The notes under the pieces: generated by a model
What the model was told of the DNA's origin: nothing
Seen by the model: only the letters and a program-made list of their open reading frames with translations
Databases searched by the model: none
Made by a program: the position numbers and the translations under genes
NCBI GenBank assembly: GCA_903908245.1
Contig: CAIVRE010000008.1
Span: 1,432 to 65,431 of the forward strand
Reading direction: 5' to 3'
From: Candidatus Omnitrophota bacterium
GTDB lineage: Bacteria; Omnitrophota; Gorgyraeia; Zapsychrales; Fredricksoniimonadaceae
Length of the DNA stretch: 64,000 bases
In this document: positions 33,001-57,000 of the stretch, piece after piece
Layout: each line of letters begins with the position of its first letter
How positions within the stretch are numbered: position 1 is the first letter of the stretch

Positions 33001-36000
33001 CATCCACTGGGCAACCCCGTTATTGCCGACAACCAGGCGATAATCCCTCACGAGCTCCGCCATAGTCGTCGCCGTAATATCGATCGGGGCCACCAGCTGG
33101 TTGGCCTTGAGCGTAACCACCATCTGCAGGAACGGACGATACACAACTCCATCAACCCTGACGAACTTTTCCTTGCCCTGCGCCTGGATGACCGCTTCGC
33201 CCTCGTCGAACTTCCCGTTGCGGTTCTCATCCTGATAATAAGGATACCCGTTATTCCAGCGGACATGCTGGAGCGCGGCGCGGCCTTCCCTGATCTTGCC
33301 CAGGAGATAAGACGAATCCTGAATTTCAAATTCCGGCTGTGCTGTCCTGGAAACGATCACCGTCTTGAACGTTCCATCCGCCAGCTCTTCAAAAACCTCA
33401 AAACCATTCTTCAGGGCTTCGATCTCGGCATTGATCCGCACCACGCGCGCCTCGATGGCCTTCACGCCAGGCTCGAAAACCTTGACCACCCCGTTCTCGA
33501 CCAGGACCATCGTATCCGCGCCGAAAACCCTGCCATTGATCGCATACAGGTTGCTCTGGCCGATCTGCTGGGCGCCCTTGGTATAACGGGCCGGCATGAA
33601 CGCCTTCACATCATCCATGCTGCCCACCACGGTGGCTTCCTTGCCGACAACGATATGCCCGAACCCGTTGATCCCGTCAATGCGCGCCTGATGCTCAAGC
33701 TTCTTGTTGGCCACATCCACCTGCCAGGCATTAAGGGTCTTGACCGACGGCTGGAAAATGCCCGCGATATCGCCGCGGAAATTCAGCTTCACGAACCCGT
33801 CCTCGGAAAGGCCCAGCACCTTCGCCTGGGCCTGGACTTTCTCTCCCGCCCAGCGGACGACCACCAGGCCATCGGTATTATCCACCGCCCTCGGCAGGCC
33901 GGTATTGTAGAAGATCACGCCGCCGCGGTTCAGCCCGCTCAGCACGATATCCTTGACCGCGTCACTGCCTTCCATGGAATACTTCATCTGGTCGATGCCC
34001 TGGCGGATCTTCTGCACCAAAGCCGCATCGGTCAGGCCGGGACGGGTACGGAACCCGTCAAACTCGCGGGCATCGTCAACCACCGTACGGGTCATGCCGC
34101 CGAACGAAGCCCAGTTATACCAGGACCGGCGGAACTCGTCGGTCACATAATCAGTGAAAATATTCCCCTTGGCCGGAGCGCGGACCGCAGGCTCGATCAC
34201 AAGGGCTGCATTGGTCCGGCCAACAGCCTGCATGGCCCGGGCACGATCAGGGCCAAGGTCCTCAACGCGCACAGCCACCGTACCCGCGGCCGGATATTCC
34301 GACCGGCTCGCCGTATAAATATCAATGATCCGCGTTGAATGCGGGACCCACTCGCCATTACTGCCTTTTTCGTAAGGACCGCTGTCATCCTTGCGGAACA
34401 CGCCCATCAGGGCGCCCGTATCCTGACGATAGACCGCGACCCAATTCCCATTGGCCACGGGCAGGCGCTCATTTAACGCGGCGCTGACGCCCGCTTCCAG
34501 GCGGTTCTCACGATTGCCTGTCTTTGTGCTGTTCCCGCCTTCATCAGGAGAATAGAAGGACGCTTCGCCCATAAACGCCCGGCCATTAGAGATCTGCGCC
34601 GCCGGGCCATTCTCCTGGCGCAGCGAATCCGTTACCATCTCGACGATCTCGCCCGAAATAGGATGACGGACAACCTGCAGGATCTGGTGGCCCTGCCTGT
34701 CGTAACCATTGATGAACGCTTTCTCTTTAAGGAGGGCATTGGTCGAAAGGCGGGCCTTCATGACCATGGTATCAAAATTATCAACATTGAACTCGCCCTG
34801 CAGGAAGCCCCTGGTAATGAAGCCCGGGGAAGCGAACACGTGGCGGGCGATCAGCTTGCCATTCTCGATCTTGCAGATGATCCCGTGGATCGTCGCGCGG
34901 CGGGCATCGCCCTGGTCGTTCTGCTTCCAGCCATTGGTCGCCTTATCCAGGGAATAGAAATGCTTGTCGCTGGTATTCGGCTGATAGATCTCCAGATAAA
35001 CCGTGTTGCTATCGCCATTGACCGCGGCAAGATGGTTATAAACGAGCTGATACGGGCCATACGCCAGCTGATCTCCCAGGTTCTCGAAATTGAAATGCTT
35101 GTTCACATCGCCGAAAAGTTTCCACAGCGGCGTAAGCTGATGGCCGGTCAGGCGGTCCATCGCGCCGGGCAGGGCACGAACAGTATCGAGCGCGCCCAGG
35201 CTCATCACCGTAGCCTCACGCGCTTTATTGTCCTGGTCATGGAACTCAACATCGGTCCAGTTCCACACCAGGGTGTTGAAGATGCCCTGGACCGGATTCT
35301 TGTCCGTATGATAAAGCTTGGTCTGGCCGCGGCCCGCATGCGTAACAGCGTAGGAATAGATCTCGGCCGCATGATCCGCCAGGATGGCCGGCCCGGCGTA
35401 AGCGCTGAATCCGGTGCCAATACCATTCTGCATCAAACCGGTAACGATCTGATAATCGGTCGCGAACCGCTTGCCCGGATGATCGATATCCAGGATCAGG
35501 GTGTTCGGGCCTGTACCATTGATGGAAACCATCGGGAAGTTATAATTCATGACATAACTAATGGCGACCGGGAAATTGGCATTGACCGTGCTGACCCCCT
35601 CCAGGGCCTTGTTCTCCCGAAGCTTCTTGTCAATATTCTCCAGGCGCTCGGCTGTCGTCTTGCGGCCATCCTTCTCCTTTTGCGCCTTTTCCAGGTTTAC
35701 CAGCGCGCCATTTTTAGGATCGTTCAGGTTCTGGTCCAGGGAAGCCGCGCGGACATCCTGCTCTTGCTTGGCCTTCTCTAATTTGGCAACTTCATCCTGG
35801 ATCGCCGCAATACCCACCTGAGCCTGTGTCAACTGCCCTTCACGGCCTCCATTCTCACCAACCGGAGCAAGATTAGCCGCAAGCATCCCGACAAGCGTGT
35901 TGGTATTCGGCCCCTTAATATCATAATTAATGCGAATACCACGAAGTGAATGATCTTGGAAGAAGCTCTCTTTAAGCTTGTAGGTTGCCCAGACATGTTC

Positions 36001-39000
36001 CGCACGGAGCATATCATCACCTGCCAACGCCTGAGGATCGACCATCATGGCCAACTTACCACCAACCGTAGCCTCTTCCACCTGCTGACGGGTCTCTTCT
36101 GTAACATCTTCGGGCAACCCGACCATCATTCCCGTATTAGCAATGGTCACAACTTTATCGCTGGCATTGCGCGTAACATATACAACACGACGACTCGGCT
36201 CATTATCCTTAGATTTATATTCAATAACACTGCTGACCGTAACCACAATGCGATCTTGCTCAAAAGAAACCGGCGACTTAACAACATGACTGACACTTGC
36301 CGTAGTTGTTAAGCCTGAAACCGCTGTGGCGGAATTATTATCATTGGCCGAAGCAATACCAGCTCCGGCGAACAACACCACCGCAACGATAATGACAATG
36401 ACCGCCCTCCTGATCGGGGAGATGACGGCCGAAAGAGCGGCCAGGGCGATGCGAACAAAGTGCATCGGGGCGGGCACTAATGCCTTTTGACCCTGGCCAG
36501 TGACCATGGCGGAGATACCGCCAATGATCTGGGTGACGAACCCTAAATTTTTATTGTTGGGATTATTGGTATCAGATATACGGCCGGAGAGCTCCGCCGA
36601 CACACCTTCTCCGGTGATGTTCGTTCCCTTGGCGGAACAAACTCCCGGATGCTCGCTATTCTTGCCTGAAGCGTTTGAGGTAAGTCTATCTACAGGGCCC
36701 TGACCGACACTTTCCACACCCTTCACACCTGGCACACCCTGCGCGGAGTAGGCTCTGTTATCGTAACCAGTTCCCACACTTTCCACACCCTGGGCATTGC
36801 CGTAATCGCGAGGAGCCCTTGCTCTGTCCAGAGATCCGGCAGGCACACTCATCACGATCCTGGTGTTACTTCCTACACTCTCGGTATTCGCGCTGTCTTT
36901 ATTACCAGCGATCACACTCCGTGCATAGGTGGTGCCAACGATCACACTACGGGCACCCTTACTTTCATTGCTAGTCCGCGCGTTGCCATTACTGGCAGTC
37001 GCAGTTCCTTCATCAGCGGCAGCACCAGGCACACTTTGGGCATCCGTACTGGACACACCTGTGTCGGTACCCCTGTCAGAGCGGGTAATCCTGGCCGACG
37101 GACGAACCCCGCGGTTCAACTTCAGGGCGAGCCCATTGACCGCTCTTAACACTCTCTCCACCGCGGGCACAATACTGGCACCCTTGGCAAGACCAATGTT
37201 CAGAGCCCTTCTATTCAGAGCCTTACCGATCCCGGCCGCATACCCCAAGATGGCGGCAAACACCAGGACAACACCAGTACGACCCGCAGAACGATGCAAC
37301 GGTACTTCATCGACAGTAACCGCACCGATCACGGCACGGGTATTCGCTACCTTACTCGTATTCGCTACTGTACTACCATTGCCCTTGGCGTGATTGTCAG
37401 CATTCGAACGGTCAGCCAGGACATTAGCCCGCTCGTTGCCTTTACTGTTATTATTACCAGCCTTCACCAGCGCTTTAGCGCCATTCACTACACCCTTACG
37501 AACTGCATTCACAACACTACGAACTACCTTCACTGCATTGCTGCGAACTGCATTCACTGCATTAACAGTACGTACAACCTTACTTGTATTCGCTACTGTA
37601 CTACCATTGCCCTGCTCTTTGTTCTCAGCATCGGTGCCAGCGGTCAGAGCTAGCGCTACATCGACGCTCTTTTCAGCGTTGCGATCATTTAACTTCACCT
37701 CGGCAACCGGCCTGCCGTTGGCCTTAAGCACAACATTAACAGTATCACTACTATCTCTCTTGCCATTCTCGACCGCTCCGCCCCTGAGAGAGGGACTGCG
37801 GCCGGGCTTACGACCTCCATCGCCGGAACGAGACGCAAGTTCCGAATCGGACGGCCCTTTCAGCCGTCCGGCAAAATATCTGGCCCCAAGAACAGCCAAA
37901 GCAAGTACCACACCAAAGACGATCACAGGCAGAGCCCCGGCTCCACCAGCCGCGGCTCCGGCACCCGTTGCCGCTGAAGCCGTATTCGGCGTTAAGGTAA
38001 AGAGAAGCCCCATCAAGCCCATTCCACCTGCTATAGGCCCGGCGCCGGGCAATTGAGGCCCTTGAGGCACTACAGGCATCGCAGGCACAACCGGTGCTGG
38101 CGCAGGCCCTGGTGTCGGTGTAGGCCCGGGTGTTGGCGTTGGCGGTAACGATGTATTAGGAATTGTATTATTGCCTGTAGGCGGAGGCGGCGTATTGAGC
38201 GGATCCGCCTTGGCCGGAGCATCGCCTTCATCCTTAGGCTTCTGCTCATTAGCCTTCAACAAGTCAGGGATATTAACTTCCATCGTAGAATTAGCCGCGA
38301 CCTGTCCAGTCTGGACATTCCCGGCCCTGAACCGATTGATCGCCCTTCTAATGAATCCGGGTTTAGCCGGGGCAGTAGCTTTCTCGAGGCCACTCTGGAC
38401 ATAATAATCGTGTTCTGCCTGCTTTTGCTCGGCTGTTAAAGCCTCGGCCTGAGCAAGAACATCAGAGACAAACTGTTCATCCGCCTGGTACGGAGTGCCG
38501 CCCATAGAATCTGTTACGATCTGCAGGGCCTTACGGACAGTATCCTGATCAGGCTGTTTCTGATCCTCAGCCAGCAGGCCAAAGAACTCAGCCTGCCGGA
38601 CCATGATCGCGGTCAACTTCGGAATATCCCCGGCATTCTTTGTGCTATCCAGGCCAAGCAGACGGATACCAATGGGCTTGAGCAGGATCGGGGCCATCAG
38701 ATCAGCCGGGATCTCGATCTCAAAGGACCGGGCCGCCTGCACCCCGGGATATTCCTTAATATCAAAGGCCGGAACAGTGACCTTGCGGCCATCAACATCC
38801 GCCCTCACGTCGCCATTATCGCCCCTGGAGAAGGCCGCACGGACAGACTGACGGTCATCCCCTTTAAGGATAACGACCAGGCCGATCTCCTCACCCTGCT
38901 CCTGCGCAAAACGGATCAGAATATCGCCCTTGACCAGGCCCAGAGACGGCACATCTTCGGCAATACGCTGTTCCTGAAGGTATTTTTCGCTATCTTTAAC

Positions 39001-42000
39001 ATTCACCAAAAGCTGAACCTTGACCTGCTCTCCGCCAATAGTCTCGGTCTGAATATCACGCGCCGCTACACCATCCTTCACCTCAAGGCGTTCGGTCTTG
39101 TTCCTGCCATCGGTAACCGCGATACCCGTGACCGTACGGTCCTTCACCTCAAAGGCGCCATTAATATCCTTGGGCGCGGTAGCAGCAGGAGCATAGATCA
39201 GGCCGGTTTTGGTCTCATAGGTTTCGCCGGGCTGCAATGTAATGCCGTTATGCTCAACAGGCTTGTCAGCGGTATTATTAACAGCCTTGACCTCTTCTGT
39301 CCCGATCTGGCCGGACTTGTTAAGAATGGTCTGGACCGCCAAAGGCTTGCCCTTGGCCCCGTTGGCCTTCTGATAAGTGACCGCGAGCAGGCTGTCCGGC
39401 CTTGACCCGGCGAACTGCCCAGGCACACGGTCAGCCGGCGTGATCCGGTTGAACACTTTAACGAAATCTTTAAGGTTATCCGCGTGCATAAGATCCGCCG
39501 GGCCGGGCTCTTTCACATCGACCGCGCCAGGCTCGAACGCGAACACGTCAGCCAGAGGCACCGTTGCCGTCAGCTTTTTCGCGGCTTCCTCGGGCATATT
39601 CTTGTCGGCCAGCGCCGCCAGCACGATCGCCTGCATACCGCGCACCATCATGTCGATCGCATTCTGGTAATACTCGCGCATCCTGACAACGCCGCCATCC
39701 ATCACCAGATGATGCAGTTCATACATATCCAGGCTTAACTGATCGGCCTTCTGGCGCATCATTGTGCGGATATCGACAGGGATGGTCTCATCCGCCAGGA
39801 ACGGCTCGAAGACCCTCTTGCCGAACGCGATCAGGTCGTTGGAACGGGATGTCCCGGCGATCTCGCGGTCGAATTCCTGTTCATTGATATCGATCGTGCC
39901 TGCAATATATTTTCCAAAGCTCGTACCGGACGGAATATTGACCGCCAGGACAAATTTATCGATCGGCGTCTCCGTCAGCCGGCCACTCACCTTGACACCG
40001 CGGCTGCGGCCAAGCCCCTGGTCGATCTCGGTATGCGTTGACTTGGTGTCCGCCAGGACCACTAACACATCACCGCTCTTGGTATCGACCGTTTCACCAC
40101 GGATACGGCCCCTGGAAAGAACCACAAGATAACGGCGAGTCGTATCCGCCAGGATCCCGGCCAGAGCTTCAGGCGCGATCTTTGCGTAAGTCCCGTCAGG
40201 CAGGACAAAATAATCATCACCCTCGGGCTTCTCAAGGATCACGCCCATATTATTGCCCGCGGCAACTTCAGCCAGCCGGGCCAGATAAAGGTCTTCGGAA
40301 GAACCTGTTTCTCCAGGCTCGCGGGCCGCCAGCGGAATGACCACATTGCCCGAAGAACCCTTGACCAGTTCATCAAGCTTGCTCATTCCATCAGCTATAC
40401 TGCCGGTAAGGATCGTCCGGCCTTCATCCACAGGATTATCTTTATCCGTCCCGAACATCTTGCGCGACGGCGGCTCAATAGCGGTCAAAGGCTTGGCACC
40501 GTAGAACATGTTCTGTTCCCCGGCAATAAATTCCGTCAAACTACCCGACGCCAGGATGACCGGGCGCTTGGCCAGGGCGAACTGCCGGATGACTTCATCG
40601 CCCCGCACACGCTCACCCTCGATCTGATGCTCGATATCAGCCAAATTAAGCTGCGCGAGTTTGCGGCCTTGCTGTTCAGCGGCCTTGCGAAGCACAAGTG
40701 TTTGCGCCACGATCAGCCACGGGTCAGAGGTAACAACGCCGGGAGAGACCACGCCGTAAGAGTTCACCAGATAAACTTTTTTGCCATCCGCGCTAAGGGC
40801 GATCTCGCCTTCCTTATACATGGCCATGGCTTCCACCACCGCCTGCATATACGCAATGGCCTTGCGCCCGCCGTTCTTGGTGTCGCCACGGATCTCTTCG
40901 ATGGTCATGCCGCTAAAACGCTTGAGCAGAAGATCCTGGGCTTTCTGGCTGACAGCAATACGGATCTGATCCGGCGTGCGGGTCTGCACATCGGCGATCT
41001 GCTCGATCCCAAGCTCGTTGATCGCGGCCTCGATCCCCTGGATAATATCGCCATTAACCTTGCCATGCGCCTTGCCGGCGGTATTAAGGTCAGGATCGGA
41101 AGAAAGCTCGTCGTCATACAACGCGGACCTGGACATCAGCGCGTCCCACGCGGCTTTTGCCGGCGGATGATCCTTGGCCAGGCCGATCAGGGTCTGGATA
41201 TCTTTATTGTCGATCAGAAGGATGTGGTTCTCATCAATGGTCTTTTTAACCTGGTCAATATTCTTGCCATCCGGGCGAACACTGACCTGGGCCACACGTA
41301 AATTCGGGTCATACGCCCTGGCATATTCCGTAACCTCATTGAGGTTCTGGACCATCAACTTGGGCGAATGCAACCGCACCACCAGCTTGCCGTCAGGATC
41401 GTTCTTCCTGTGATCCGCGGCCATGGCAACCACCGCCACCGAGCTCTTACCGGCACCTGTACCGATCTTGGCGATCCAGACACCGGCCTGCTTGAGCGCC
41501 GCAGCGATCTTGCCACTGGCGAACAATTCATTGAAAAGAGTCTGCTCACCCTTGCGCAATACTTTCTTATTCGCGACCAGGACCTGCTCAAAGGAAGACT
41601 GCGCGGCATCAAAGCCGGGGAAGCTCAGCTGAACCGGCTTTTTGACTTCAGGCGCACTCGGCTGTTCCGACACGATCCGCATGGGCGGAGCCACCATCGG
41701 CGTAATCGCCGGAACAACAGGGACGACAGGAACAGCTGGCGGCATAACCCGAACGGGCGAAGGCAGCGGGACAGCCGGGACATTCCTCGGCGTCCTGACC
41801 GGAACAAAGCTGTTCACAACCCGCATGACACTGGCCTGTTGACTTAAAATAAAGGATCGGGACGATCCCGCGAATCTCCTGTTAAGGATGCCCTGGACAT
41901 ATCCCGAAAGGCTGTAAATATCTTTGGGAGCCTTGGCCATAGCCTCGCCAACGGTAAAGAGCGCAGGCTCAATATTGCTCCATTCAGAATTCTTGCGGGC

Positions 42001-45000
42001 CGCGAGGATCTTCCGGCCAAGGTCATTCGCTTCGGCAGCGGTCAATGCCGCGGCGTCAGCATCATTCTTGTCCGTATCATCAGACCGGGCCCAGGAAGGA
42101 AGATGCGGAGCGGTATCCGGATTGCCAGACAGGAAATTATAGAAGGCCTTCCACGAAGCCACCATGCTGCCCGCCATGACCAGCCCGGGATGTTTGCCCA
42201 CTGCCTCAGCGTCCCTGCTGGCAGGCTGAACGATCTCCACCGTTTTCTTTTCATCGGGACGAAGAGCCGCCAGCGACTTGAACAATAAGACGGAAGGCGC
42301 CTTGATAATATAATCGACAGCCTTCTTCACCGGCGAAGGAACGACCGGCACGGTAGCATTGGCCGGCGTAACGCGGGTGGACCACTCGGGGACATTGTAT
42401 TTCTTGAGCTTTTGCGCATCGATCGCGGCCGGAGCAGCTTTGACACTGCCGGTGTCTTCAAAGAAATTCTTACCCTGAGAGCCATCATTCAAAGGAACCT
42501 CGGCAACAACAGGCGCGGCTACCGGCGCAACGGCACCAACAACGGCTTTATGCTGCAGAGCGGCAGACTCGGCCTTGGCAACAGCTTTGGCATCATTCCA
42601 GGGATTCTGGGCGTTATAAGCCTCGGCCGTAACTTCGGGCCTGCCGCCTTCACGCAGATTCTTAAGGTTACGGATCTTGGCAAGAAGGGCCAGTTTCGCA
42701 TCGGTGCTAAGGGTACCGTTAAGCGTGCCGTCATGGAGCTCCTGACGCATTCTGTCAAGCGCCTTGACCTGGCCAACATGCGCTTCCACCTTCTTGGGTT
42801 CGGCGCGTTTAAAGTTCTTCGAATAGAGATCGTCGTAATTCGCATTGGTGGTCTTGATCCAGATCTCGCCCTTCTGGTCAATGTAAACCTTGAGCTGACG
42901 GCCTTCCCACATTCCAAGCCAGGCCTGGAACTTGGCCGTACGGGCCTCGATCGCCGCGGCATTACCGGCATTGGCCTTAATGAACACCCGGACTTCGACC
43001 AGCTGGCTATAGAGCGCATCATTAAGCTCGACCATCTTGAGCACGCGGCCAGAAGCGGCAAGTTCACCATTAACTCCGGCCCAGGCATCCGCAACCTCTT
43101 TCGGCCATTTGCCCGTGCCGAACTTGAAGTTGAGCGTATCCTCAATACCCTTGCGCTGAAGTTCAGCTTTATTCTTGCTATGCTTAAAGGCCTGGATCGC
43201 CTTAACGGCCACAGCCGAGGTAAGCTCGACAGGCTTGATCATCGCCTTCACATCCTGCGGGACAGCTTCAACAAAGATATTGCTTAAGAACCATGTCCAG
43301 AACCCGTCCGGGTTCCCCTTGTACTTCGTATTCAGCGCCCAATCGACCCAAGTGGTCTGACTCGCGTCCTGTTGAGAGCTGGATGAAACCTTGAAGCAGG
43401 AACCGACCTTCTCGGATGGATCGGCCTTATCGGCCTTACGGTCAAGCGCCGGTAAATTCAACTGCTCTATTCTAAATTTATTGATCTTCCAGTCAGGGAA
43501 CCTGGCAAGATGCGCAAGGACCTCAGGATCGGCCGTACCGCCATTAATAGCGCTGACCAGCGATGGCATCGAATAATGCTGCAAAAGAAGTTCAGGTACC
43601 GAGTACACCGGCGCCGGGCCCGGCACAGGACGGTTGATCTCCGGCTTGACGAACGGTGTTGCCCCCTCAATGACCGCGGCACGATCGGCTTCATTGGAAG
43701 GCGTCAATTCCGCTTTATCTTTCTCAACCTTGGCGGCCTGGATACCGGCAAGGCGCATCAGAATACGATTGAAACGCTCAATAACACGCTTGACCAGGTC
43801 ATCGGACGCAATAATATTGCTCTTAGATCCCAGGCGATCTCTTACCGCATCCGATTTAATAAGCGCTGCAACCAAAGGCTTTAATTCATCCGCCCCCTTG
43901 CCTTTAAACATTTCAAGATTGCGATCGATCATCTCCTGGGTAATGATCTTAACGTCTTTCTGATCAAATTCCGGAGCATCTTCGTCGTTGAGCGCCGCTA
44001 AAGTTTGCGGCGCAACAGGCGGCGTGATCACAGGTACCGCAGGAGCCTGAGCGACCACCGAAGTAACCGCCGGAATAACTGATGCCATGGGCTGATTAAC
44101 AACAGGTGTTGGTGTTGTCGTAACTGTAATAGATGAAGTAGATGTTGTGGGCAGAGCAACAGGAGCGGGTGCAGTGCTAGCTGGGCCAACCGGCGCCACT
44201 TGGTTAATATTAGATGTAGATGTTTTTCCTTGTACGATATCAAGCACATCTTGAACCTTCTTCGCAATGTCTGGAGGAGGACCAGCGCCAGCCAGTATCG
44301 GAGCGGAGGCCTTACTCTTCATTGCATCCTTATTATCTTTCACTTCAAGCCCCTGCCCCTGCGGAACAGTACCAGGAAGCTCCTGCTCAGCCGGAACCCC
44401 GAAATTCTTAAGCACACCCGATTGCATATTCTTCACTGTTGAATCGATCTGAGTTGCAATAAAATCGGTAAACGACTGCTCCTGCCCGCTCAAAGCTTTA
44501 ATATCGCCATCCTTGCCCAATGTGACTGAGCGCTTCGCAGCAACAGATGTATATGTGATCGTACCATCCGCATTATCTTTTCTTGTAAAAGCCTCATCCG
44601 CAAAAATTGCCGCCACATGACGATACAACGTAGCGCTATCAGCAACTTTTAACCTCTGCAAGTCAGTCGGCGTCAACGGATCGCTAAAAACAAGCTCCTG
44701 CCCGGGCTGAGTCGCCTTCTTGAGCAACGTCACACGTTCACCAACATACGGCTTGGCGAGGCCAAGGATCATCTGAACCACCGGTTTGTCACTCCACAGA
44801 TCGCCTTTCATGCGATCCTCAGACAAAGACGTCAACAGACTCGCCAAAGGAATGGACATCTCCAGTTGGCCGATCGTACCTGCCAGCATTGTCTTGAGAT
44901 TTTCCGTATATTTACCATCTGCCTGCTGCGGCATCATCAAAACCACCTGCGGATTCTCCTTCTCGCCCATCGGGAGGGTCACGGTAACCTGAACAGGACT

Positions 45001-48000
45001 TTTGCTGTCTGTCGCCGTCCCAATTTTTACAAGTGATCCGCTCTTATCAGAAACAAGCGCATCGTAAACTAACTTCAAGGCCGTCATATCCATACGGCCG
45101 ATATAAAGCGAACGATGCGCAACCTGATAACTGGCATCTCTTAAAGCCGTTTCGCGACCCGCGCCCATCCGGGAAGCACTTTCCAATTTGCCATCAAAAG
45201 AACCTGAATCGCCCACCAATTCACGCATATGAGCAAGCACCTCTTCAACCGCATTCTCAAGGAAATAAATACCGGTGAACATACTGCCTAACTTTTGACC
45301 GGGATCCTGCACACGGACCTGAGTATCAAACAATAATGAGCGTCCCTTGGTCAAACGGGTCAAACTATGGACATCCAATTCATGCGGGAGAACACCCGCC
45401 TCGAGGAACGTATGGGCGTACACTTCATTAAGGAAGACCTCAACACCCAAACGGATCGATGTATCATCTGCCAACGCCGCACTTGCCTTCTTGGTCAATT
45501 CCGGATCAATAATGATCTTTTTATGATTCTTGTGCTCATTCAACCGTTCAATGAACTGATAGCGTTTAAACTTCTGCACATCCGCCAGGGAAACATTCTC
45601 GCCGCCCTTGTTAGAAGCTTCAATTTTCGCTCTTAATCCGGCGTAATCAGCTTTTTCCTGATCATTCAAATCAACGATGCTTTCAACATCCAAAGAACCA
45701 TCTTTAAACTTGATACCACGATCCTTACCCAACAAATTCTCTCCGGCCGCGCGTATCATTGTTGTCAACTTCTCCCGGGCGGCTTCAAGCGGCATTTCCT
45801 GATCCATCTTGCCTTTTAAATTTTTATAAACTTTCTCAAGCATCCCCTCATCAGCACCACGAAGAGCCCCGAACCCGGCATTAATTTCCTGCTTGCGCCC
45901 AAGCAATTCTTTCTGCGCTGCCGATAACTCGGCAAGTTTCTCCCCTGCGGCCTTCCCGACCTTCTCCATATCCTGCATATCACTTGCTTCCAAAGAAAGG
46001 GTCGTCCGCAGCCAATCCAATTTCTTTTGATTTTCTTTAATGATCGCTTCAGCCGACTGCCCCGCTGCAATAAGTTTCGCCACTTTCTTCGTACTATCCA
46101 ATGAATCACTAATATCCTTTGCCATCTTTTCATACTGCGCCATCACCTGTTGATACGGATCGATCTTCCCAATAGCTGCCTTAAAAGCATCAAAATTAAT
46201 AAAGGCCTTCCGCTCTTCATTCTTAACAGAGAAGATCATGCCACGAGTATCAGAATCAAACCATCCAGTCATCTTTAACGCATTCCAGATCGAACGATCA
46301 AAATCTTTAGAAAACTCCTGCATCTGCAGAACGCCATCACGGCTTATCATCTGGGCCAAACGATTGACCTCATACATTTCCGAAGATACCAACGCCGGGC
46401 GGGTCTCTCCCGGAATATACATCAAATGACCAACAAGGCTGTTATCCACAAGATTACGAACGGCACCATCTTTGATATCGATCTTGTGTACCATTGGGTC
46501 AAACTTGAACGCGCCGGAAGCATTTTCAACGATCTTATGATACTCAAGGCCACTGCTTGTACTTAAGGTAGCAAAAGCCGCAGTATTATTTCCAGCGGAC
46601 GGATTAAAAAGAACATTATTCTGCACATTCCACACCATCCCGCGCGGAATGATCAAGCCGCCACCGAGCTGAATGTTCCCATTAAGGGCTTCATAATAAA
46701 CTGGCTCAAAATCCTGGATCTTGTAAACCGTTTTTCCGTCTTGATCCTGTTCAACAATATACCGCGGCGCATAACCGACACGGCGGGAATTCTGCCCCTC
46801 GGTCCTCGCCACGATCGGGCGCTGATCCAAAGCATTATTGATCGTCTTGCCCGTCCGCTCCAAATAAGCAGACAAAATCTCGTTCCTGGAGGCCTTTTCC
46901 ATCGTAGCCAAAGAACCTTCCACACGAGCACGCTGCACTCCTGAAGATACCTGGGCAACCGACACAACAGACTGCGTTAAAGCTTCCTGGGAATGCTGTG
47001 CAGCAATAGAACTGAATTCAGTCACAACTTGCTCAAAAGCCGTTTTGTACGCATCAGAACTCTTATAATCCCCACCCTTTGCTCTGATCGCATCTAATTG
47101 ACTGACCGCATCCTTCAGCATGGTTCTTTGCCCAGTGGTCAAATTAACATCCAATGCGCTAGCCACAAAGAAGTCCATTGTCCCAGGTGTACGCTCATCA
47201 ATAACTTGCGGCACCAATCCAATACGGGTCGGCTGTTGAACAATACCCGTACTATCAAGGACCGCTGTCCCAATAATATGCGCCAAACCGCGGACTTCCA
47301 CCGAGACGCCTTCAACAAAATCTCCCAGAAGAATGCGATGCGTCAAATTCACACGATCCGTCTCCCCATCCCTTTCTGCCTCTAAATAATTCGTTAACCC
47401 TGTTGAAACTTCCTCACCCTTCTCTGTCGTAAAATCCTTAACCCTCTCTTTACCAGATGCCAGCAATGTATCAAAGTTCCATTTAGTCCGGATCTCGTCA
47501 AATGCCACGCGAACTTTTCCGCCATCTTTTGCATTATAAATCTTATCCCAAAGAACATCTCTTTGTGCGCCTTTCTCCATCCATGCATCACGAATTTTCT
47601 TATCCCCAACCAATTTTACAACTTCATTCTTGATCGCATTCTGCAGCAACTCAGGATTCGTCTGAAGTAACTTATATACAGCATCACGGAATAAAGAATC
47701 ATGGCTGGAAACAAGGATCGTATTGGCACGTGCGTAAACCGGCTCAGTATTCAAAGGATCAAGAACCTTTGTTACCACATCATCACTAAACCACCTCTCC
47801 AAATATGTGATCGTATCTGCCTTTACTTTCTGTTCTAATTGTTCGCCGGATAATGATCCCTCAGCCTTGGCATTATTCCTATCTCTAACCCCCTGTTGAA
47901 ACTCATTGGCAATAGTTTTCACATCCCATTGACGCGCAATACCATACGCGATACGACCCACAATGTCCTGCGCCGCGCCGGAACGATCCTTGGCTGAACT

Positions 48001-51000
48001 GATAAAAAAGTTCGTTTTATCTTTATTAATCGAAATGTGCTTGGCAAATTCAACCGGATCAGAGAACCGGGCGATCTTAAAGCCCGACGCATGTAAAGTA
48101 TTATTAATATCCTTGGCTGTACCGGTCATACCAAGAACCTGGTCAAAGAAGTCAATGGCATTGGCTGCGCTCATTCGATCAGAAACGCTCCCCATGGCCT
48201 GCTGAAGAATAGAAGCCTCTTTATCAACCTTTATGCGCTGCGCATCCGGCATTTCCCACATCAAATGAGACAAGGCCATCAACGCACGCGCATTTAATCC
48301 CGTAGGATCACTAAAAATATTATTATCCATATATTTATCGCGCGACTTATCTTTGACCGCGTACTTTACAATTCCGGTGGCCTCATCAAAACTGACCCTA
48401 TATCGTTCACCGATCGTGCCGATCTGATCCAAAGACCAAGCCGCCTCATTAAGCAACTCCCGCAACTGAGATCTTGATAATGCACTCTCTACCCCGTCGA
48501 TCTTTGAAACTTTTTTCCATAATGCTTCAAATGCCTCTGGGGTAAACTGTTTTCGATCAGAAACCTCAGAACCGCCCGCTGTCTTATATGTTTCGATCTG
48601 ATCTTTAAGTTTTGAAGCGATGTCCTTTTCTCCAGGCTTGATCTCAAAATGGCTAGTAACAACTTCCCAAACCTTCCCTGCGATCTCGCCTCTCTGACTA
48701 TAACGCTCCAGCATGCCGGGCATCAAAGCAGACATGATCTCTTTATTGCTGCTTCCCTGGTCGGTAACACGCTCAGGAGCTAAATAAACCCGGTGGAACT
48801 CATCCATCACCGCGGTCACGCCCTCAAAATAATTTGCCGCCGACCCGTTCCTCGACGCATGAACCGCATAATCCTGCACATCAAGAAGTTTAAGGACCCT
48901 GACCTCCCCATCCTTGAATGCCTCAACCTCAACCTTATCACCAGACCGGGTTGCTTCGCGAAACAACCCGCCAAACTTCTTATTCATTGCACCCATTACC
49001 TCATGACTATCAACATTGGCCCAAGCCTTATAAAGGTCATCACTGGTAGCGACCAGGGCTACTTTCTTTCCCGTAGCGGCCAACACCCCGGCCATGGCCA
49101 CAGCAATAGTCGATTTACCACCACCAACGAACTGGTCCCACATCATACGACCGCTCTTACCGAATGCCGTCTGAAAGAATCCATAAATAGCCGCCGCTTG
49201 TTCTTCACGAATATCGAATCTCTTCCCATTAGAGGTCCTCACATCTTTAAGAATACCCAAAACCATCTTTGTCGCGACTTCCGCACGTTCATTAATATCT
49301 TTAATATCATTGAGTTTTTTTATGTCTGCACGCGTTCTCGGAATAGTCAACACTTCAGCGATCGTTGAACTCTGATCAGCAATTGAGTCTTTATTAATTT
49401 TTAACAACCTGTTCAGATCCTGCGCGATCTTCCTCCCTGAAGAGAAAATATCGCTCGAAAACGTCTTAATATCGCTTTCAAGATCTTTATCTGAACCAGG
49501 ATTCTTCCGCCCCTGTTCTGCCTTTACTGCCGCCGTCCTACGACTCGACTCAAAATCCGCCCCATAGAACGGCAATTTCCCGCCTAAGGCATTGCTTTCA
49601 CGTAAAGCGCGTGTCCAGGGAGATGAGCCCATCCCGGGATCATTACGAAGAGCTTTAGCACTATCAGATATGGCTGTTGGTTTAGAAGAGGATTTATCAA
49701 TGGAAACTTCGGCGGGAGAACCTTTCCCAGTCGGAGGTGCTTGAGGCTTAAGAGCTGTCTCAAGCTTGAGCATTGCCTGACGAACATTATTGAATTGCGC
49801 ATCAGAGCCAAGGGAACCAGCCAATTCACGCAATCCCCCAACCAGGTCTGTTGCAGGAGCACTTAAGCCCTTCTTGCCGTTGATCATTTCCGTTGCCTTC
49901 GCTAAAAATTCCCCAAGGCCGGAACGAATACCAATATCATCCCCATTCAATTTTCCCTGCTCTATAGAAACAGCCTCACGCATGGCATCAAACGCTTGCG
50001 CAAATGTCGCACGATCACCTAAAGATTCATACGCCCGAAGCTCCAAAAGCTTCGCTTCCAGCATATTGACAAGCTTTGGCTGATCCTTGCTTTCGCCTTG
50101 CTTATTATTCTGAACTTTCAGGATAGTCTGAACCTGTTCTGCTGCCTTACCAAAATCCCCGCTTCTCTGCAAGGCCTGAACATAGTCCATGCGTAATCCG
50201 ATATCACTAAAACCATTAATACCTTTATTGCCCTTATCACTTAGATCATTGCGGTTTTCCTTCGCGGCTAACGCATCCAATTTAACCGCCTTCTCAAGCA
50301 GCTTAACCGCTTTATTGATCTTCCCGCCTTCAAGCGCCTCGACCCCCTGCTGCCGCACCTGCGCCGCTTCCAACATAGTACGCAACGTCTTAATATCCGT
50401 CTTTAAATTCTCCAGGCTTTCCGCACCATTATCCGCATCTTTCACCCTGGACGATTCTTTAGCAAGAAAAGATTCCAATGACTTGATAACAGAAGCTACC
50501 TCTGCGAAATCTGCGGAAGCGTCCAGCCTCTCGGTTCCCCGCTCACTGATCCGGGTAAGCCTGACAGCCGCGATATTCTTTAAAAGATCCGAATTATTCG
50601 GATTCATTACCTTCGCCAATTCCAAAAGATCAACAGCCCTGGTCGTCTGCTGCGACTGCGCCGAAGCCCGTGCATTCTCTAATAAATGATTGTACCCATT
50701 CTCTCCAAGAACAAGTTCTCTCATGGATGCCAGAACAAAACGAGTCTCCTTCGGTGCGCGATCGTATAAATTATCCACAATATCAAGCATGGATCTCGCA
50801 TGCCCCACTTGAGCTTTTACCGACTCAGCGAATTTATCCATGTCGAAAGACACCGTGCCCTTATCATCAGCCTTATACTCCGTTGCCAGAACAGTCTTGG
50901 ATGCTATATCATTAACCCATGCCTTCCGTGCCTGCGCTACTTCTGCTGCAATAGTCTTCCTGGCACCAACCGAAACGCCTCCCTGCTGATCTAATAAATG

Positions 51001-54000
51001 CTCTATGATCGCATTCTCTAATTTTTCAACTGTCTGATGCTCTCTTTTCAATGCATTAAGTGTATCCTGATCAATCAATTTACGCGTAACAAACTCACCA
51101 TACGCCCCCTCAAGCCCATCGCTGATAATTTTTCTAATAGGCGATTCCGCCCCCGCATCCTTACCACCTACTGTTGTAGTCAAATTATCCACAAGAAGAG
51201 AACCATTGTTCTTTAAATGCGAGGTAACTTCACTGATAGTGCTATCGAGCAATTCATGATATCTTGTCCACTCCCCATGATCCGCCGGCTGAACCCTTTC
51301 AGCACTACTAAACTGCTCAATAAGTTTATTGAACTTCTCGGCATCGATCGTTCTCAAAGGACGAACCTTGTCATAAAAACTCAACGTGTCCCTCGCCCGA
51401 TCAACCATCCGCTCCAAGCGTCCGGCACTTCCCTCTGAAGCTGTTAAAGTATCCGCAACCGCCTTACGAAGTTTCTCCGCAACCTGCGCAGCAGCACCCC
51501 CCTTAAACTCCAGGGCATAATCGTTAAGGTCCCGCGTAAGCCTGTCCAGATCGCTTCCTCGAGAAGCAGACTTTAACTGTGCCTTGGCGATATCCGCCCG
51601 CCCGATCTCCTGCAAACGCCCTTGAGCCAAGGCGCTATTGTTTGATGATTGTGCCACTTCCTGATGAAGCGCTTCAACTTCAGCATCAGTTCCGGATTTT
51701 TTGGAATCCCGAACCAATTCTCTCACATTCTGACTGCGCTCTTTACTGCCCTTGATAGCAGTTTCTAAGAATCTTGCTAATTCCGCTTTCTTTTGCTCAA
51801 GTCTTTTCTGGAACATCCCGACCTTGCTGAATTTTGTTAAGGCTGCGATCTCTTGCTCAAGTTTCTTAACCTGAGCACGTTCAACCGCTGCATTAACAGC
51901 ATGATCTACAAGAAGCTTGAATTTGCCGATCTCCATCTCCACCTTTTCCCGCCGCTGTTTTAACGCAGTTGAATCGCCCATCCCATTTTCGATCTTCCAG
52001 TCAATGAGAGAAAGCTCTGTTTCAAGCGACCGGCTCCGCGCATTAGTCCTATCAGCGATCGCTAACGCCTTTTCCGTTGTCCCAGCTTTCCTGGACATTA
52101 CATTAACCAATGTGTTCCCAAGAATAAAAGCATCCCGCAGAAGTTGCGTCCGCAGTTGAGCCGCTTTCGACATCTTGTCGATCCTCACATCGAGGGTCTG
52201 CGGCGTAGCCGTAGTGCTGGCCTGTGGGGCGATCGCAACATCGCCAACCGCCTTCGCAGAATTCAACCCATCATTCAAAGCTTTATTACGAACTTCCAAA
52301 GCCGTGCGTTCCTGTAATAATTGATTCCTTTGCTCCGAAGTAACATCCGGCTTAATAAGCGCCGCATCAATGGCCACTGTTCTGGCATTATTGACAGCCA
52401 TGGTTCTCCGCGCGAAATCCTCAACACGTTTGGCCACGTTCTCTTGCAACCGGGGAGCAGACCCATCATTGGCTTCAACCGCGCTCTGAAGTTTTTGTTC
52501 TGCCCGAGCTAATCCTTCCGCCCGAACCTGAAGAGCCGCCTGGTCATGGATAAATTGAGCCTGATCAAGTGCTCCCTTGGCTTCCTGGGCCGCTGGAGAC
52601 TCCTTATCTGTTATAGATTCATAAACAGTCTTCGCTTCCGTAAGGTCACGACGAGCCATCCTGTACGCCTCAACCGGAGAGGTGGCATTATGATACGATT
52701 TCACAGCCAGCATGGGTGCATACGCCCAAACCGTTTCCTCAAGCCCAGAAGAAATAATCGTCCGGTCCTTAGGATTAAACCCTTTACCATCGATCAAATT
52801 GGACAACGACGCAAGAGACCACTTTCCAGCCTCAAGTCTTTTCTTATCTTCCTCGCTTTTTATTAGAGATTTATCTTTATACTCACCAAACATGTAATTA
52901 ACCGCCTCCTTCGTTCCCGTAACAACCAGCGGCATATAAAACATATCTCTATACGCGGCACTAGCAATAGAACCTTCAGCAAAAGGCTGTTGAATATAGC
53001 CGAAGCCCTTCTGTACGCTGCTCATCAATCCATTGCCCGGCTTCGGAGTCCCCTGTAACTGAAGGACCGCGAACAACGGAGACATCCATGCGCCCTGCCG
53101 CGGGGACATAATGGTCTCTTCTCCGAGTAAAGCCTGATGTAAATTGTCCTGGGTAAACAACGACCGCCCGTTATCAGCCATGAAAAGCGGAATATCTTTC
53201 CAGCTACGATACCCATACTTCTTAAAAGCACGCGAATCCTCTCCATCAATCGCCACTTCAATCTGCGCCGATGCGCCTTTCCAGAAAGCACCGCCACCGC
53301 CCATCATAATATTGACACCCGGCCAGCGCACTGCACCGCTGGAGGTCATATCAATAAGCCCTTTCTCGGCACCAGGGTTGGAATAGAACCCCTTAAGTGT
53401 ATTCATGTTTGTCATCCCGAGACCTTTCAAGATCCGCAAAGACAACATCGCAGCGCCAGCACCTGCAATAGCATCTGTTACCCCACGCCCCACAGTATAA
53501 TTCTTACGATCATTGTAATATTCATACCCGACCTTTAACCCCGCGCCTGCCAATCCAGTCGCGGTATATTTGACCCAAGTAGGCGTTTTGGAAAGAGCGC
53601 TCACAAAGCTGTTATTAAAAAGTCTGCTCCCCGAAGCATACGTGGCGGCAGCACCAGCTCCGACAAAAACCGTTCCCCATACTGCCCCGGTCTTAAGGCC
53701 TTCTTTATAATCTTGCGCCATCGCCGAATCAAAAGTATCTGTTTCCAATCTTCCTCTGGAAGCCGTTCCGGTCACAGCGTATGTTTGACCAAAAACAAGC
53801 GCCTCCGAACCGATCGACCTTGCCGTACGCTGAGCAATATTAATAGCCCTTCCCCATGTCATAGCGCCTCCTTCTAACGCACTAGCAGGCGCGATCGCTT
53901 TTGCTAACGGATATGAAGCAGCTATTCCAAGCAATTGCACATTTTGCTTCCAGGTCAATTCCCCTTTTCCATTCATTAACGATATCGCATTGGCACCACC

Positions 54001-57000
54001 GATCGAAAGAGAAGCACTCGCCGCATACTGCAGCCCAATCCTGGCAGCCGCTGTCTTGACACTACTGGCAGCACCGGAGAAAGGAACCGACAGCGCAGCA
54101 AGGGAGACAAACGCGCTTTCTTGCAAATCTAACCCGCGGCCTCTGGCCGCATAAGAAATAGCATTACCACCGATATTAAATGCCCCGATAGCTCCGACAC
54201 CACGAACCACGCCCACAGCCCATGGGTTGGCGGACATCGCTATTAACGACGTTCCTACGCCAGCTAAACGTGTTCCCTGCAAAGCATTCCCCGTGCCTGC
54301 CATAAATCTGGTTGCGAGCGAAAGATTACTGCTCCCCAGCCATCCACCCGCACGCGCCATCAATGCGCTCGAAACACCCGCCTGCAAAATATTACTAACA
54401 GAAAAATCGCCCGTTTTATTATATTTATAGATTTCTGCCGCTGTCGCAACCCCCGCGCCAAGCGCAGCGTACACCAAAACCCTTTTAGTGGCATACCTTG
54501 TCGCAATTGTCTCCGTAGCCTGAACAGCAACTCTAACCGCCACCCTAGCTGCAGTAGTCACCGATGCATGCAATGCCCCTTTAGCTGATTCAGCAGCAAG
54601 AACAGAAGTTCCCGCAGAAAAAAGAGCCGTACCCAATTCAACCGCCGTAATAACTCCATCTACCACATAAATAGCCCCCATCACTTTTGCACCGTTATTC
54701 ATCGCGTGCAACTGATCCGAGAATGCCCTGGCACTGGAATAATCATTGCGAACCAATTCATCCGCGATCCCTTTCATTTCATTACCATCAGCAAAATAAT
54801 GATTCATACGTCCGTCTTTATTCACATACCAGACCGCAATATCATTATCCCGAACTCCCATCCAAGCCTCACCCTTACTCTTCCATGCATTGATCTCTTC
54901 AGGCAATGCAGCCGTACCCGCCTTATTTGCGCCAAACACTGAATCCATCCAGTTCGACCCGGAACCACCGGACTTGCTGGATATTTTATCCATATCATTC
55001 AACCAGACCGTCTTCCCCTCACCCCACCTGTTCACAACATCCGTAGACCCTGAACCAAACATTGGATAAATATAGCGAGCCGCAAGTGAATTTCGTCCAC
55101 CGACCCAATACCCCTGATGATTTTCTATCTCGGAGGATCTTGTGATCGCAAAATCCCCTTCCGGCGTCTTAACGATCGTTGAATCTTGTAATATCCTGTC
55201 TGACTGCGCCGGATTAAGCAGCAGCTTCATGATCTTGATCGCCTCGGGAGAATATTGAGTGTCTAAAACTTTCTTGCCATCTTTCACAACCCATTGTTCT
55301 GAAACGATATCCGGCATATAAACAAATGCCTGCATCCCTATTCCACCTAACCCGCCTTGATTACGCGGAGTGATCAGCCCTTGGACCAAGCTGACCATCA
55401 AAACCTCGGAATCCCTTTCTTTCGAATACTCCGCATACGAACCAGAACCATATTTATTCCTGATCTCTGTCGGCTTGGACAGGTCATTTCCCAACGCTGA
55501 ACGCACCGCAAACTCCGTCATCTGCGAATTACCCATTCGAGGATCACGCAACAAATCGTTATAAAGAAGAAGGTTTTTATTAGAACCAACATCCATCGGC
55601 GGCATATTGGAAGGCAACGCCGGCAAAGAAGCAATCCTGTCGCCCCAAATAACAGAAGAATACGCATTATCAAAAGCCGTTGTCTGGGCGCCCACTGTAA
55701 CAGTCGTCAATTGCTGATTATCCAATTCAGACAAGAACCGGCCACCATTACGCATATCTCCGGTCTCAACATCCTGCAATAACAATCTGGATCCCGTACC
55801 ATATCCAGTTTCTACCACAACAGTACCGCGATCTTGTAAATGCCCCGCGATATTAGAGGTCACCTTTGTTGGTTTCCCATCAGTCCCAAGGACAGCAAGC
55901 TCAACATCTTTCATGGCTTGCCCATAAGGCGTTGTTGATGTCGCCGCATCACTTGTTTTCTTGGAAGACAGCAGATCTTTAAGCATCGCAGTGAACCGTG
56001 ATCCAGGCAGGTTCGCGAACAACGTTGCAGAAAAAGGAACCTCTACCAATCCTTCATTAACCACCAATCGCTCACCGACCACTTTTCCCGTCTTGCTATC
56101 GATTATCGCAACCCAACCCGGATCGCGAGAACCATACGATCGAGACCCTATCTCAAAACCTTGTCCTGAAGCCCCTAATTCTATTTTATAACTGCCATCG
56201 GCCTGAATATCCTTGGCAAGGCCTGAACGGAACTCCCCGCTAACCCGATACTGACCGGCAACACCAACAAAAGTTCCCCAGCCTTCTACATTCCTTGTTA
56301 ATTGTTTAAGACCATGTTCTGATAAAGTGCCATAAGCCGCAGGCAATCCCTGGGACAAATTAACATTAGCAAGCGTATCCGTATGCTGACTCGGCTGAAG
56401 AAGCACGGTCATAACTTTATAAATATTGGTATCCTTTACTAATGTACCTTCACCAAAAAAATCAACAAGTCCATCTTGTCTATACGTCCATCCGGCGAAA
56501 GCATCCTTAGCTCCTTCTTTCATATAAAGTTTTGAATCCTCGGAATACCACATCCCCGAACCAACTTTATCCCCTTTCCTAACGCCATCATATTTAAGGG
56601 CAAAGAAAGTGGATTGATCAAGGCCGACCGTGCTTAATGCCTCTTTCTCCTGCCTGCTCAATGAAAAATAATCAGTCCACGCTTTCTCTGCGATAGACAG
56701 CCTTTCACCAGACACCCCAGCGGTCTTAAGCTTGGCAATAAAATCCGCTTTGGTCTGCCGCGGCGCTTTATATTCGTAAGGAGCAGAACCAAAATCCGAT
56801 TTAACCGGAACACCCATATTCTGGTCTTTATTTTCCTGGCGCGCTTCATCGGCTAACAAAACAACCGATCCCTTCTTGTCCCCGGCGAACCGCAATCCAT
56901 CCGTCATGATCCACTTGCCATCACTATCAAGTCCACCTAAGTGAAATCCAAGACGGGTGACATAACTGCCTTTATCATCCAAGAGCCCTTTTTCTGATGC

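Follow-up and report, generated by a model that had tools for sequence, protein, structure and literature searches.

Synonymous composition changes in sharp steps inside a single giant open reading frame of a Candidatus Omnitrophota bacterium

How can a single open reading frame (ORF) change its base composition strongly along its length and remain open throughout? This question is raised by a stretch of 64,000 nucleotides from a Candidatus Omnitrophota bacterium (GenBank assembly GCA_903908245.1, contig CAIVRE010000008.1, positions 1,432 to 65,431), hereafter called the window, which is occupied from end to end by a fragment of one giant gene. A sequence-only reading of the window had described a GC gradient within an unbroken frame, and had attributed it to the fusion of modules with different evolutionary histories or to different selective constraints on the N-terminal third. 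We analyzed the composition of the gene, its protein modules and the one homologue that was found. The unbroken frame is indeed there: minus-strand frame 1 contains 0 stops across the entire window (21,333 codons), and the remaining five frames contain 259-1,332 stops each.

1-64000, minus strand, giant ORF fragment of at least 21,333 codons, both ends open, no stops in minus frame 1

The complete gene must exceed 64 kb. With codon 1 at window position 63999, codon i begins at 63999 - 3(i - 1); the ORF extends past both window ends, and 'N-terminal' and 'C-terminal' are used as relative terms. This single uninterrupted ORF of more than 10,000 amino acids (aa) is neither a nonribosomal peptide synthetase or polyketide synthase (NRPS/PKS) nor a simple repeat array, as no NRPS/PKS domains occur among the Pfam matches of the giant protein and no internal protein repeats were found at E<1e-3.

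Measured in 2-kb windows, bulk GC is 0.59-0.63 at 1-23 kb, 0.54-0.57 at 36-44 kb and 0.46-0.51 at 45-64 kb. The GC figures given before were thus roughly right, with slightly overstated extremes, and the accompanying claim of a shift at third codon positions holds as well, since the change is synonymous. GC at third codon positions (GC3) is 0.473 for aa 1-6656 versus 0.704 for aa 9397-21333, while pooled codon usage applied to the amino-acid sequence predicts a GC3 of 0.62 in either part. A uniform GC3 after controlling for amino acids had been set beforehand as the outcome that would speak against the claim; we found GC3 to be far from uniform, with z = -26 for aa 1-6656 and z = +21 for aa 9397-21333. 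Amino-acid composition is thereby ruled out as the cause.

The compositional change is a set of steps and not the gradient that had been proposed. We defined provinces by binary segmentation on four-fold sites, with GC4 denoting GC at four-fold synonymous sites. Change points were located at codons 6656, 8476 and 9396 (window 44031/44032, 38571/38572 and 35811/35812), and an additional change in G-versus-C usage at codon 11654 (window ~29038). The best change point has a log-likelihood ratio (LLR) of 331, compared with a mean of 3.0 and a maximum of 9.2 in 500 shuffles by which neither the protein sequence nor the usage within any codon family was altered. The ORF is divided into at least three provinces with sharp borders.

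44032-63999, minus strand, province A: aa 1-6656; bulk GC 0.48, GC3 0.47, GC4 0.48
38572-44031, minus strand, province B: aa 6657-8476; GC4 0.69; without G/C skew at four-fold sites; still Lys-rich
35812-38571, minus strand, province C: aa 8477-9396; GC4 0.53; proline-rich linker, three transmembrane helices and low-complexity R/N/V/A/S/G sequence
1-35811, minus strand, provinces D-F: aa 9397-21333, 35.8 kb; GC4 0.76; ~17 transmembrane helices among enzyme modules
43798-44082, minus strand, main compositional step: codons 6640-6734, from four independent synonymous change-point estimates
43990-44232, minus strand, P/T/V/A-rich low-complexity inter-module linker, as read from the sequence: aa ~6590-6670; GC4 0.27; the main step begins here

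Within the provinces composition varies little. GC4 stays at 0.43-0.56 across the protein parts of province A and at 0.67-0.83 in D-F, where it is mostly 0.72-0.83; province D (aa 9400-12400) has the highest value, 0.80. Four measures (GC4, G versus C, A versus T and two-fold C versus T) independently put the main step at codons 6640-6734 (~43.80-44.08 kb). A likelihood computed on the full codon table favours codon ~6721 and shows intermediate usage as far as ~codon 6950, and the transition spans at most 1 kb. The provinces are set apart by steps of this kind, each no longer than 1 kb and located at low-complexity inter-module linkers.

What changes at the main step is a matter of several codon-usage axes. 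Four-fold A/C/G/T frequencies are 0.16/0.17/0.31/0.35 in province A versus 0.06/0.31/0.45/0.18 in the last 7,800 codons, which is a symmetric shift of C to T plus G to A with no one-strand effect. Province A favours TTG and TTA for Leu and AGR for Arg, and has a G/(G+C) of 0.64 at four-fold sites and a two-fold C/(C+T) of 0.18. G/(G+C) at four-fold sites switches along the ORF (0.64, 0.49, 0.59) while strand and replichore remain constant. Tetranucleotide z-scores correlate at 0.64-0.76 among B, D and F and at only 0.12-0.53 between A and the rest, which bears out the warning that composition-based tools would split this locus. Dinucleotide signatures were not decisive, with a delta* of ~0.08-0.10 for A versus F compared with 0.02-0.06 within provinces. 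Under the regression of Lawrence and Ochman (1997), GC at first codon positions (GC1) and GC3 agree within each province on the equilibrium genome GC that they imply, with values of 46/47 in A, 57/57 in B and 59/61 in D-F.

We asked which other properties of the gene follow these steps. The steps are decoupled from amino-acid shifts: Lys/(Lys+Arg) changes at ~codon 7750 and strongly at ~codon 13730 (LLR 108), away from the synonymous steps. As several codon-usage axes switch together and the Lys/Arg balance switches elsewhere, the signal lies at the DNA level rather than at the protein level. At the second of these sites (window ~22810, aa ~13730) a Lys-rich sequence (Lys/(Lys+Arg) 0.48-0.62) gives way to an Arg-rich one (0.26) with unchanged synonymous composition, and this switch may correspond to a border in the function or the topology of the protein. 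Within each province, moreover, composition stays level over parts of widely differing protein type; province A alone comprises a G/S/T/N region rich in beta structure, a hydrophobic region rich in Ala and Gly, an extended coiled coil and a putative ATPase module. Nor do the steps follow membrane topology, since A and B share a helix-free stretch yet differ, and D-F crosses ~17 helices with GC unchanged. A distinction between conserved and orphan sequence was rejected because orphan province D has the highest GC4, and a transcription-linked gradient from 5' to 3' because the profile is non-monotonic, the shift is symmetric on both strands and its polarity is reversed in the homologue described below. 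There is no convincing candidate for an opposite-strand gene in province C, no excess of internal promoters or terminators at the main step, and no repeat family touches the main-step interval. Translational selection cannot account for the discontinuity, as all parts of one ORF share one expression level and codon selection tied to expression must act on them alike.

Proline-rich inter-module linkers behave as a class of their own. They use A/T-ending codons, with a GC4 of 0.27-0.54, whatever the surrounding province, and are found at window 43990-44232 and 37753-38209 and, in the homologue P0121 (L004), at aa 2426-2493 and 4373-4542. Since such linkers are low in GC4 in both genes, part of the dip in province C is explained.

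The question then was whether the arrangement of modules is shared by a relative, and whether the composition is shared with it. A HMMER search with aa 4801-6000 against 1.84 billion representatives returned a single protein, P0121 (4,542 aa, E=7e-25). It is MBF0595135.1, a partial 'hypothetical protein' from a Candidatus Omnitrophica metagenome-assembled genome (MAG), and occupies the whole of contig JADFWR010000070.1 (13,627 bp). No homologues of aa 1-2500 and aa 6301-7500 were found among 5.8 billion proteins. Searches of genome contigs and of metagenome contigs (the latter with an exact 32-mer and a degenerate VPxLGLVKGDI pattern) yielded no relatives, a single TARA match to the pattern being due to chance; a scan of viral contigs revealed no relative, and tblastn of aa 3701-6656 against phages and plasmids detected no similarity.

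Although the giant gene and P0121 are only ~25% identical, BLASTP aligned them in six collinear blocks with similar spacing (P0121 1000-4542 to giant aa 4923-8749).

37753-49233, minus strand, stretch collinear with P0121: aa 4923-8749; six BLASTP blocks; spans the A|B and B|C steps

Five of the blocks have E values from 2e-25 to 6e-5. The sixth (aa 8597-8749), which covers a proline-rich linker and a transmembrane, low-complexity stretch, has E 0.10, and a seventh match (E 0.005) lies off the diagonal. Composition does not follow this shared order. In the blocks equivalent to province A, GC4 is 0.49 here versus 0.74 in P0121 and GC1 is 0.55 versus 0.58; in those equivalent to province B, GC4 is 0.72 here versus 0.60 in P0121 and GC1 is 0.64 versus 0.58. 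The linker and transmembrane stretch of P0121 that corresponds to province C is low in GC4 as well (0.44). P0121 has a step of its own at codon ~3044, where GC4 falls from 0.72 to 0.56 (LLR 28 versus a null maximum of 8.8). This step is reversed in polarity and displaced, mapping to the next inter-module linker at giant aa ~7400. For comparison, an unrelated giant gene fragment (L003, 3,300 codons) was compositionally homogeneous. Lys/(Lys+Arg) is ~0.6 in the giant gene and in P0121, which makes Lys-richness a property of the protein.

The collinearity of P0121 across the step shows that the architecture is ancestral and older than the compositional difference; the step is neither a join of unrelated DNA nor a recent gene fusion. 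An ancestral architecture combined with a lineage-specific composition argues against a fusion of unrelated genes, against a conserved functional codon programme and against a crude chimera. Of the two origins suggested by the sequence-only reading, the mosaic one therefore survives in part: different histories remain the best reading, but not a fusion of unrelated modules, given the collinearity over codons 4923-8749. The other, different selective constraints on the N-terminal third, is contradicted by the opposite GC4 ranking in P0121 (0.74 versus 0.60) and by the flat composition across protein types within provinces.

Two further observations concern this pair of genes. All provinces and P0121 have a codon dialect in common: CAT makes up 82-88% of His codons, and four-fold codons ending in A are shunned in favour of CCG, ACG and GCG. 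In the provinces, CTA and CGA are almost absent as well. In the window and in P0121 (L004), NAT exceeds NAC for Asn, Asp and Tyr even at a GC4 of 0.76; A-ending four-fold codons account for just 3-6% outside province A, and at coding-strand third positions G is commoner than C and T is commoner than A. The motifs EDVPxLGLVKGDI and VLKGDD are near-invariant between the two proteins (window 38600-39510, aa ~8164-8466), and judged by this sequence conservation the module at aa ~8164-8466 appears strongly constrained despite the ~25% overall identity.

We give an even chance to the explanation that the patchwork arose by module-wise segment replacement between related lineages of different GC. Homologous blocks from a related giant gene, carried by a lineage of different GC, would have taken the place of whole module blocks through homeologous recombination or gene conversion, and only linkers would have tolerated the junctions. 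Module order would have been kept in this process, and each block would still show the codon usage of the genome in which it evolved and, in part, that genome's GC at first positions. Province A (20 kb, ~46-47% GC equivalent) would be the most recent import and B an older one, although the reverse is equally possible. Provinces D-F (35.8 kb, GC4 0.76) are uniform despite many unrelated enzyme modules and therefore probably represent the resident composition, that of a genome of ~59-61% GC. The common codon dialect suggests donors from related lineages; by what mechanism the segments recombined, from which lineages they came, and in which direction and when, we infer from these patterns. Rather short of an even chance is the generalization that giant Omnitrophota genes are arrays of exchangeable modules, whose multi-kb blocks are repeatedly replaced, at inter-module linkers, by homologous counterparts out of lineages that differ in genomic GC.

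Several points weigh against segment replacement. No donor lineage was identified. The sole homologue is ~25% identical and is itself a 13.6-kb MAG contig, so that ancestry is read from composition and not from phylogeny, and the window holds no other gene from which the resident genome composition could be read. The step is not razor-sharp, with intermediate codon usage at ~codons 6650-6950, and aa 6657-7514, just past it, have only weak, non-significant collinear matches to P0121. The differences in GC1 and amino acids between provinces could be partly functional. Hallmarks of recombination (repeats, tRNA, integrase) are absent at the boundaries; homologous replacement does not require them. 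Finally, an assembly join inside the low-complexity linker, judged from the contig sequence, keeps a small probability.

Such a join would make the window a chimera, in which orthologous giant genes of two related organisms of different GC were joined in frame within the P/T/V linker. This we regard as quite unlikely. It is true that the linker at the step is of low complexity, which makes it the likeliest place for spuriously shared k-mers, that each side appears compositionally equilibrated for a different genome GC, that tetranucleotide signatures differ strongly, and that a common codon dialect is equally expected from two related organisms. However, module order and spacing match those of P0121, and the join would have had to hit the orthologous position and frame, at a junction free of repeats, between organisms that differ by 0.2-0.3 in GC4 and should have almost no long exact k-mers in common. 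At least three further significant change points would need several chimeric joins, and the homologous contig, which comes from another study, has its own step. The fusion idea of the sequence-only reading, in the form of an accretion of province A from one or more once separate foreign genes, fused to the 5' end by loss of a stop codon, is very unlikely. The enzyme modules do have stand-alone homologues, such as proteins of 0.9-1.3 thousand aa that are 40% identical to the GDE and amylase module, so that fusion builds giant genes over long times, and the boundary does lie at a linker. Yet P0121 has the same order from A to B to C and no stop codon. Any fusion thus predates the split of lineages that are now ~25% identical, and a compositional difference of that age should have been erased at synonymous sites.

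Rather unlikely, too, is an origin in place that involves no foreign DNA, by mutation bias on the kb scale, GC-biased gene conversion or selection at synonymous sites. A hypervariable N-terminal part could, for example, recombine less and decay to AT, or elongation could be codon-tuned for co-translational export by SecA-like motors. All provinces have the same idiosyncratic dialect, the symmetric third-position shift of C to T and G to A is that expected under stronger AT pressure, and province A has the fewest detectable homologues; the low GC4 of proline-rich linkers in both genes means that some local effect of sequence class exists. These points are outweighed, in our view, by the opposite GC ranking of the modules in P0121, which leaves nothing module- or position-specific conserved, and by province D, which has no Pfam or NCBIfam match, much like A, and yet has the highest GC4. 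Moreover, the steps are abrupt and not graded, and the four-fold G/C skew switches with them at constant strand and replichore. To our knowledge there is no established mechanism for stable mutational regimes on the kb scale inside one bacterial gene. That the provinces are purposely maintained, programming elongation speed along an mRNA of more than 64 kb, is highly improbable. Segment replacement between related lineages thus remains the explanation that we favour.

The protein that carries these provinces is tiled by enzyme families that occur in one copy each, none of them dominating by copy number.

14611-16557, minus strand, GDE_C plus alpha-amylase module (Pfam): GDE_C at aa 15815-16221 (E=1.9e-81) and Alpha-amylase at aa 16271-16463 (E=3.2e-07)
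7516-12084, minus strand, PEP-utilising, HAD-like, DUF1152 and HATPase_c modules (Pfam): PEP-utilizers_C at aa 17417-17688 (E=1.7e-29) within the PEP-utilising module at aa 17306-17688; HAD (Hydrolase) at aa 17862-17937 (E=0.0021, weak); DUF1152 at aa 18172-18279 (E=5.8e-07); HATPase_c at aa 18671-18828 (E=3.1e-05, below cut-off)
aa 18901-19024, DUF218 (Pfam, E=3.9e-07)
aa 20408-20464, GNAT (Acetyltransf_1; Pfam, E=0.0036-0.005, weak)
22858-23223, minus strand, Metallophos (calcineurin-like phosphoesterase) at aa 13593-13714 (Pfam, E=3.6e-04, at gathering score)
48100-49218, minus strand, putative divergent SecA/SF2-like P-loop ATPase module of province A at aa 4928-5300 (weak Pfam matches plus motifs): ResIII at aa 4928-5073 (E=0.0067, weak, below gathering score) and SecA_DEAD at aa 5264-5300 (E=0.0047, weak, 16.7 bits versus a cut-off of 24.6)
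aa 7507-7605, DEAD-like second P-loop module, in province B (Pfam, E=8.8e-04, weak)
37882-37938, 37216-37272 and 36349-36405, minus strand, the three transmembrane helices of province C (hydropathy)

Pfam cut-offs are reached, or nearly so, by GDE_C, Alpha-amylase, PEP-utilizers_C, DUF218, DUF1152 and Metallophos; the matches to HATPase_c, HAD and GNAT are weak. The GDE and amylase module is closest to 35-40% identical proteins of 870-1,283 aa that have this pair of domains and in several cases are truncated at a contig edge. The Metallophos module is matched by phosphatases of the PDB at E~4e-7; beyond these and a weak GH158 match, a PDB sequence search with the giant protein returned nothing. 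In aa 1-5000 no Pfam family was found at E<0.01, and province A is without a confident Pfam or PDB match. Province D has no Pfam or NCBIfam match, and aa 5001-15000 have no NCBIfam match. The SecA/SF2-like module, which is the block best conserved with P0121, contains the motifs GGGKST (Walker A), MDEFH (DExH-like) and GMTGTA, as read from the sequence. An AlphaFold2 model of it, built on a two-sequence alignment, had a predicted local distance difference test score (pLDDT) of 39 and was unusable. Paralogy between the P-loop modules of provinces A and B was undetectable.

Transmembrane helices were called by a crude Kyte-Doolittle scan and not by DeepTMHMM. The scan predicted 21 helices, all after aa 7150 and none in province A. 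The call nearest the N-terminus, at aa 7152, falls within an Ala/Pro/Val linker; clear helices begin with the three of province C. Between transmembrane helices of province C, window 37340-37631 (aa ~8790-8890) holds low-complexity R/N/V/A/S/G sequence with a 55-nt repeat, whose copies lie 228 nt apart and encode GNGSTVANTSKV, plus tandem units of 18-24 nt. This segment is an outlier in dinucleotide signature against every other part (delta* 0.10-0.175). In province A, window ~53300-54700 (aa ~3100-3560) is Ala/Gly-rich and hydrophobic, with a GC at second codon positions (GC2) of 0.53 in the 500-codon window aa 3001-3500; uncalled by the strict hydropathy scan, this stretch could interact with the membrane.

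The L003 fragment (37-13780; JGI 3300009694 Ga0116170_10001638) offers a further case of glycogen-type enzymes beside or inside giant genes. There, a GH77 and GDE fusion gene of 1,247 aa is directly followed by the unrelated giant ORF, which exceeds 6,200 aa and runs off the contig.

These observations bear on the origin and upkeep of genes of 60-440 kb. If giant Omnitrophota genes do evolve as arrays of exchangeable modules, one could read from the provinces the manner and sequence in which the largest known bacterial genes were assembled and diversified; if provinces are common in giant Omnitrophota genes, they would allow a cheap, alignment-free mapping of module exchange in orphan proteins. 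The evidence on codon-usage provinces consists of two sequences and of composition alone. An exchanged N-terminal part could relate to the prey- or host-contact function that has been proposed for these proteins. There are practical consequences as well. Composition-based tools would flag part of this gene as foreign or bin it separately. Ten plus-strand ORFs of at least 300 aa (maximum 778 aa) lie at window 4102-35781, all antisense to the high-GC part, and the low-GC part has none; they have the appearance of side effects of codon bias, and gene callers could be misled by them. Spurious antisense ORFs of this kind, together with split binning, can corrupt the curation and annotation of MAGs.

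The features of the window match those of one giant gene of the membrane-anchored class of Omnitrophota that has been named the 'Archaeovorin' type (West-Roberts et al., 2023, bioRxiv 10.1101/2023.11.21.568195) or the 'multi-enzyme metabolic cluster' class (Nielsen and Lui, 2026, bioRxiv 10.64898/2026.06.07.730766), and the window would lie wholly within it. Members of this class have a domain-free N-terminal region and fast-evolving SecA_DEAD domains, as well as sugar-metabolism, HATPase_c, HAD, GNAT and PPDK-type modules with many transmembrane helices (West-Roberts et al., 2023; Nielsen and Lui, 2026). Likewise, one ORF here exceeds 64 kb without a repeat array, its N-terminal part is without confident domains, and it combines a putative, weakly matched SecA_DEAD-like ATPase with GDE, amylase, PEP/PPDK-type, HAD, HATPase_c and GNAT modules and with transmembrane helices every ~500-1000 aa in the enzyme part. 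The class-typical GT5, methyltransferase, NUDIX and C39 peptidase domains, in contrast, were not seen in this fragment. Among long Omnitrophota proteins 80% of sequence clusters are singletons while domain architectures are conserved, and the flanks of the giant genes are often rich in mobile elements (Nielsen and Lui, 2026). Type II or type IV secretion or pilus genes are typical neighbours of genes of this class. The texts of both studies make no mention of intragenic GC, codon usage or mosaic structure. Only one relative of the present sequence, from Candidatus Omnitrophica, was found, and the gene is essentially an orphan addition to the giant multi-enzyme proteins of this phylum.

Mosaic genes are also already known. 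Homologous recombination between lineages has produced them in the penicillin-binding protein genes of Streptococcus and Neisseria and in phage tail-fibre genes. There, as would be the case here, blocks of differing ancestry lie in an intact ORF, with order and frame preserved and junctions where the protein tolerates them. The blocks of the present gene differ in being 5-20 kb long and ~13 GC points apart, with an ancestry deduced from composition only. A classical horizontally acquired genomic island was rejected as an explanation: the window holds no tRNA (nor any Rfam family), no boundary repeats and no other gene, and aa 3701-6656 are without phage or plasmid similarity. Giant surface-protein genes in flexible islands of atypical GC, as in marine picocyanobacteria, Alteromonas and Haloquadratum, resemble the present case in their great length, atypical composition and frequent exchange. 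In those islands the whole gene or island deviates, whereas here the discontinuity lies inside the ORF.

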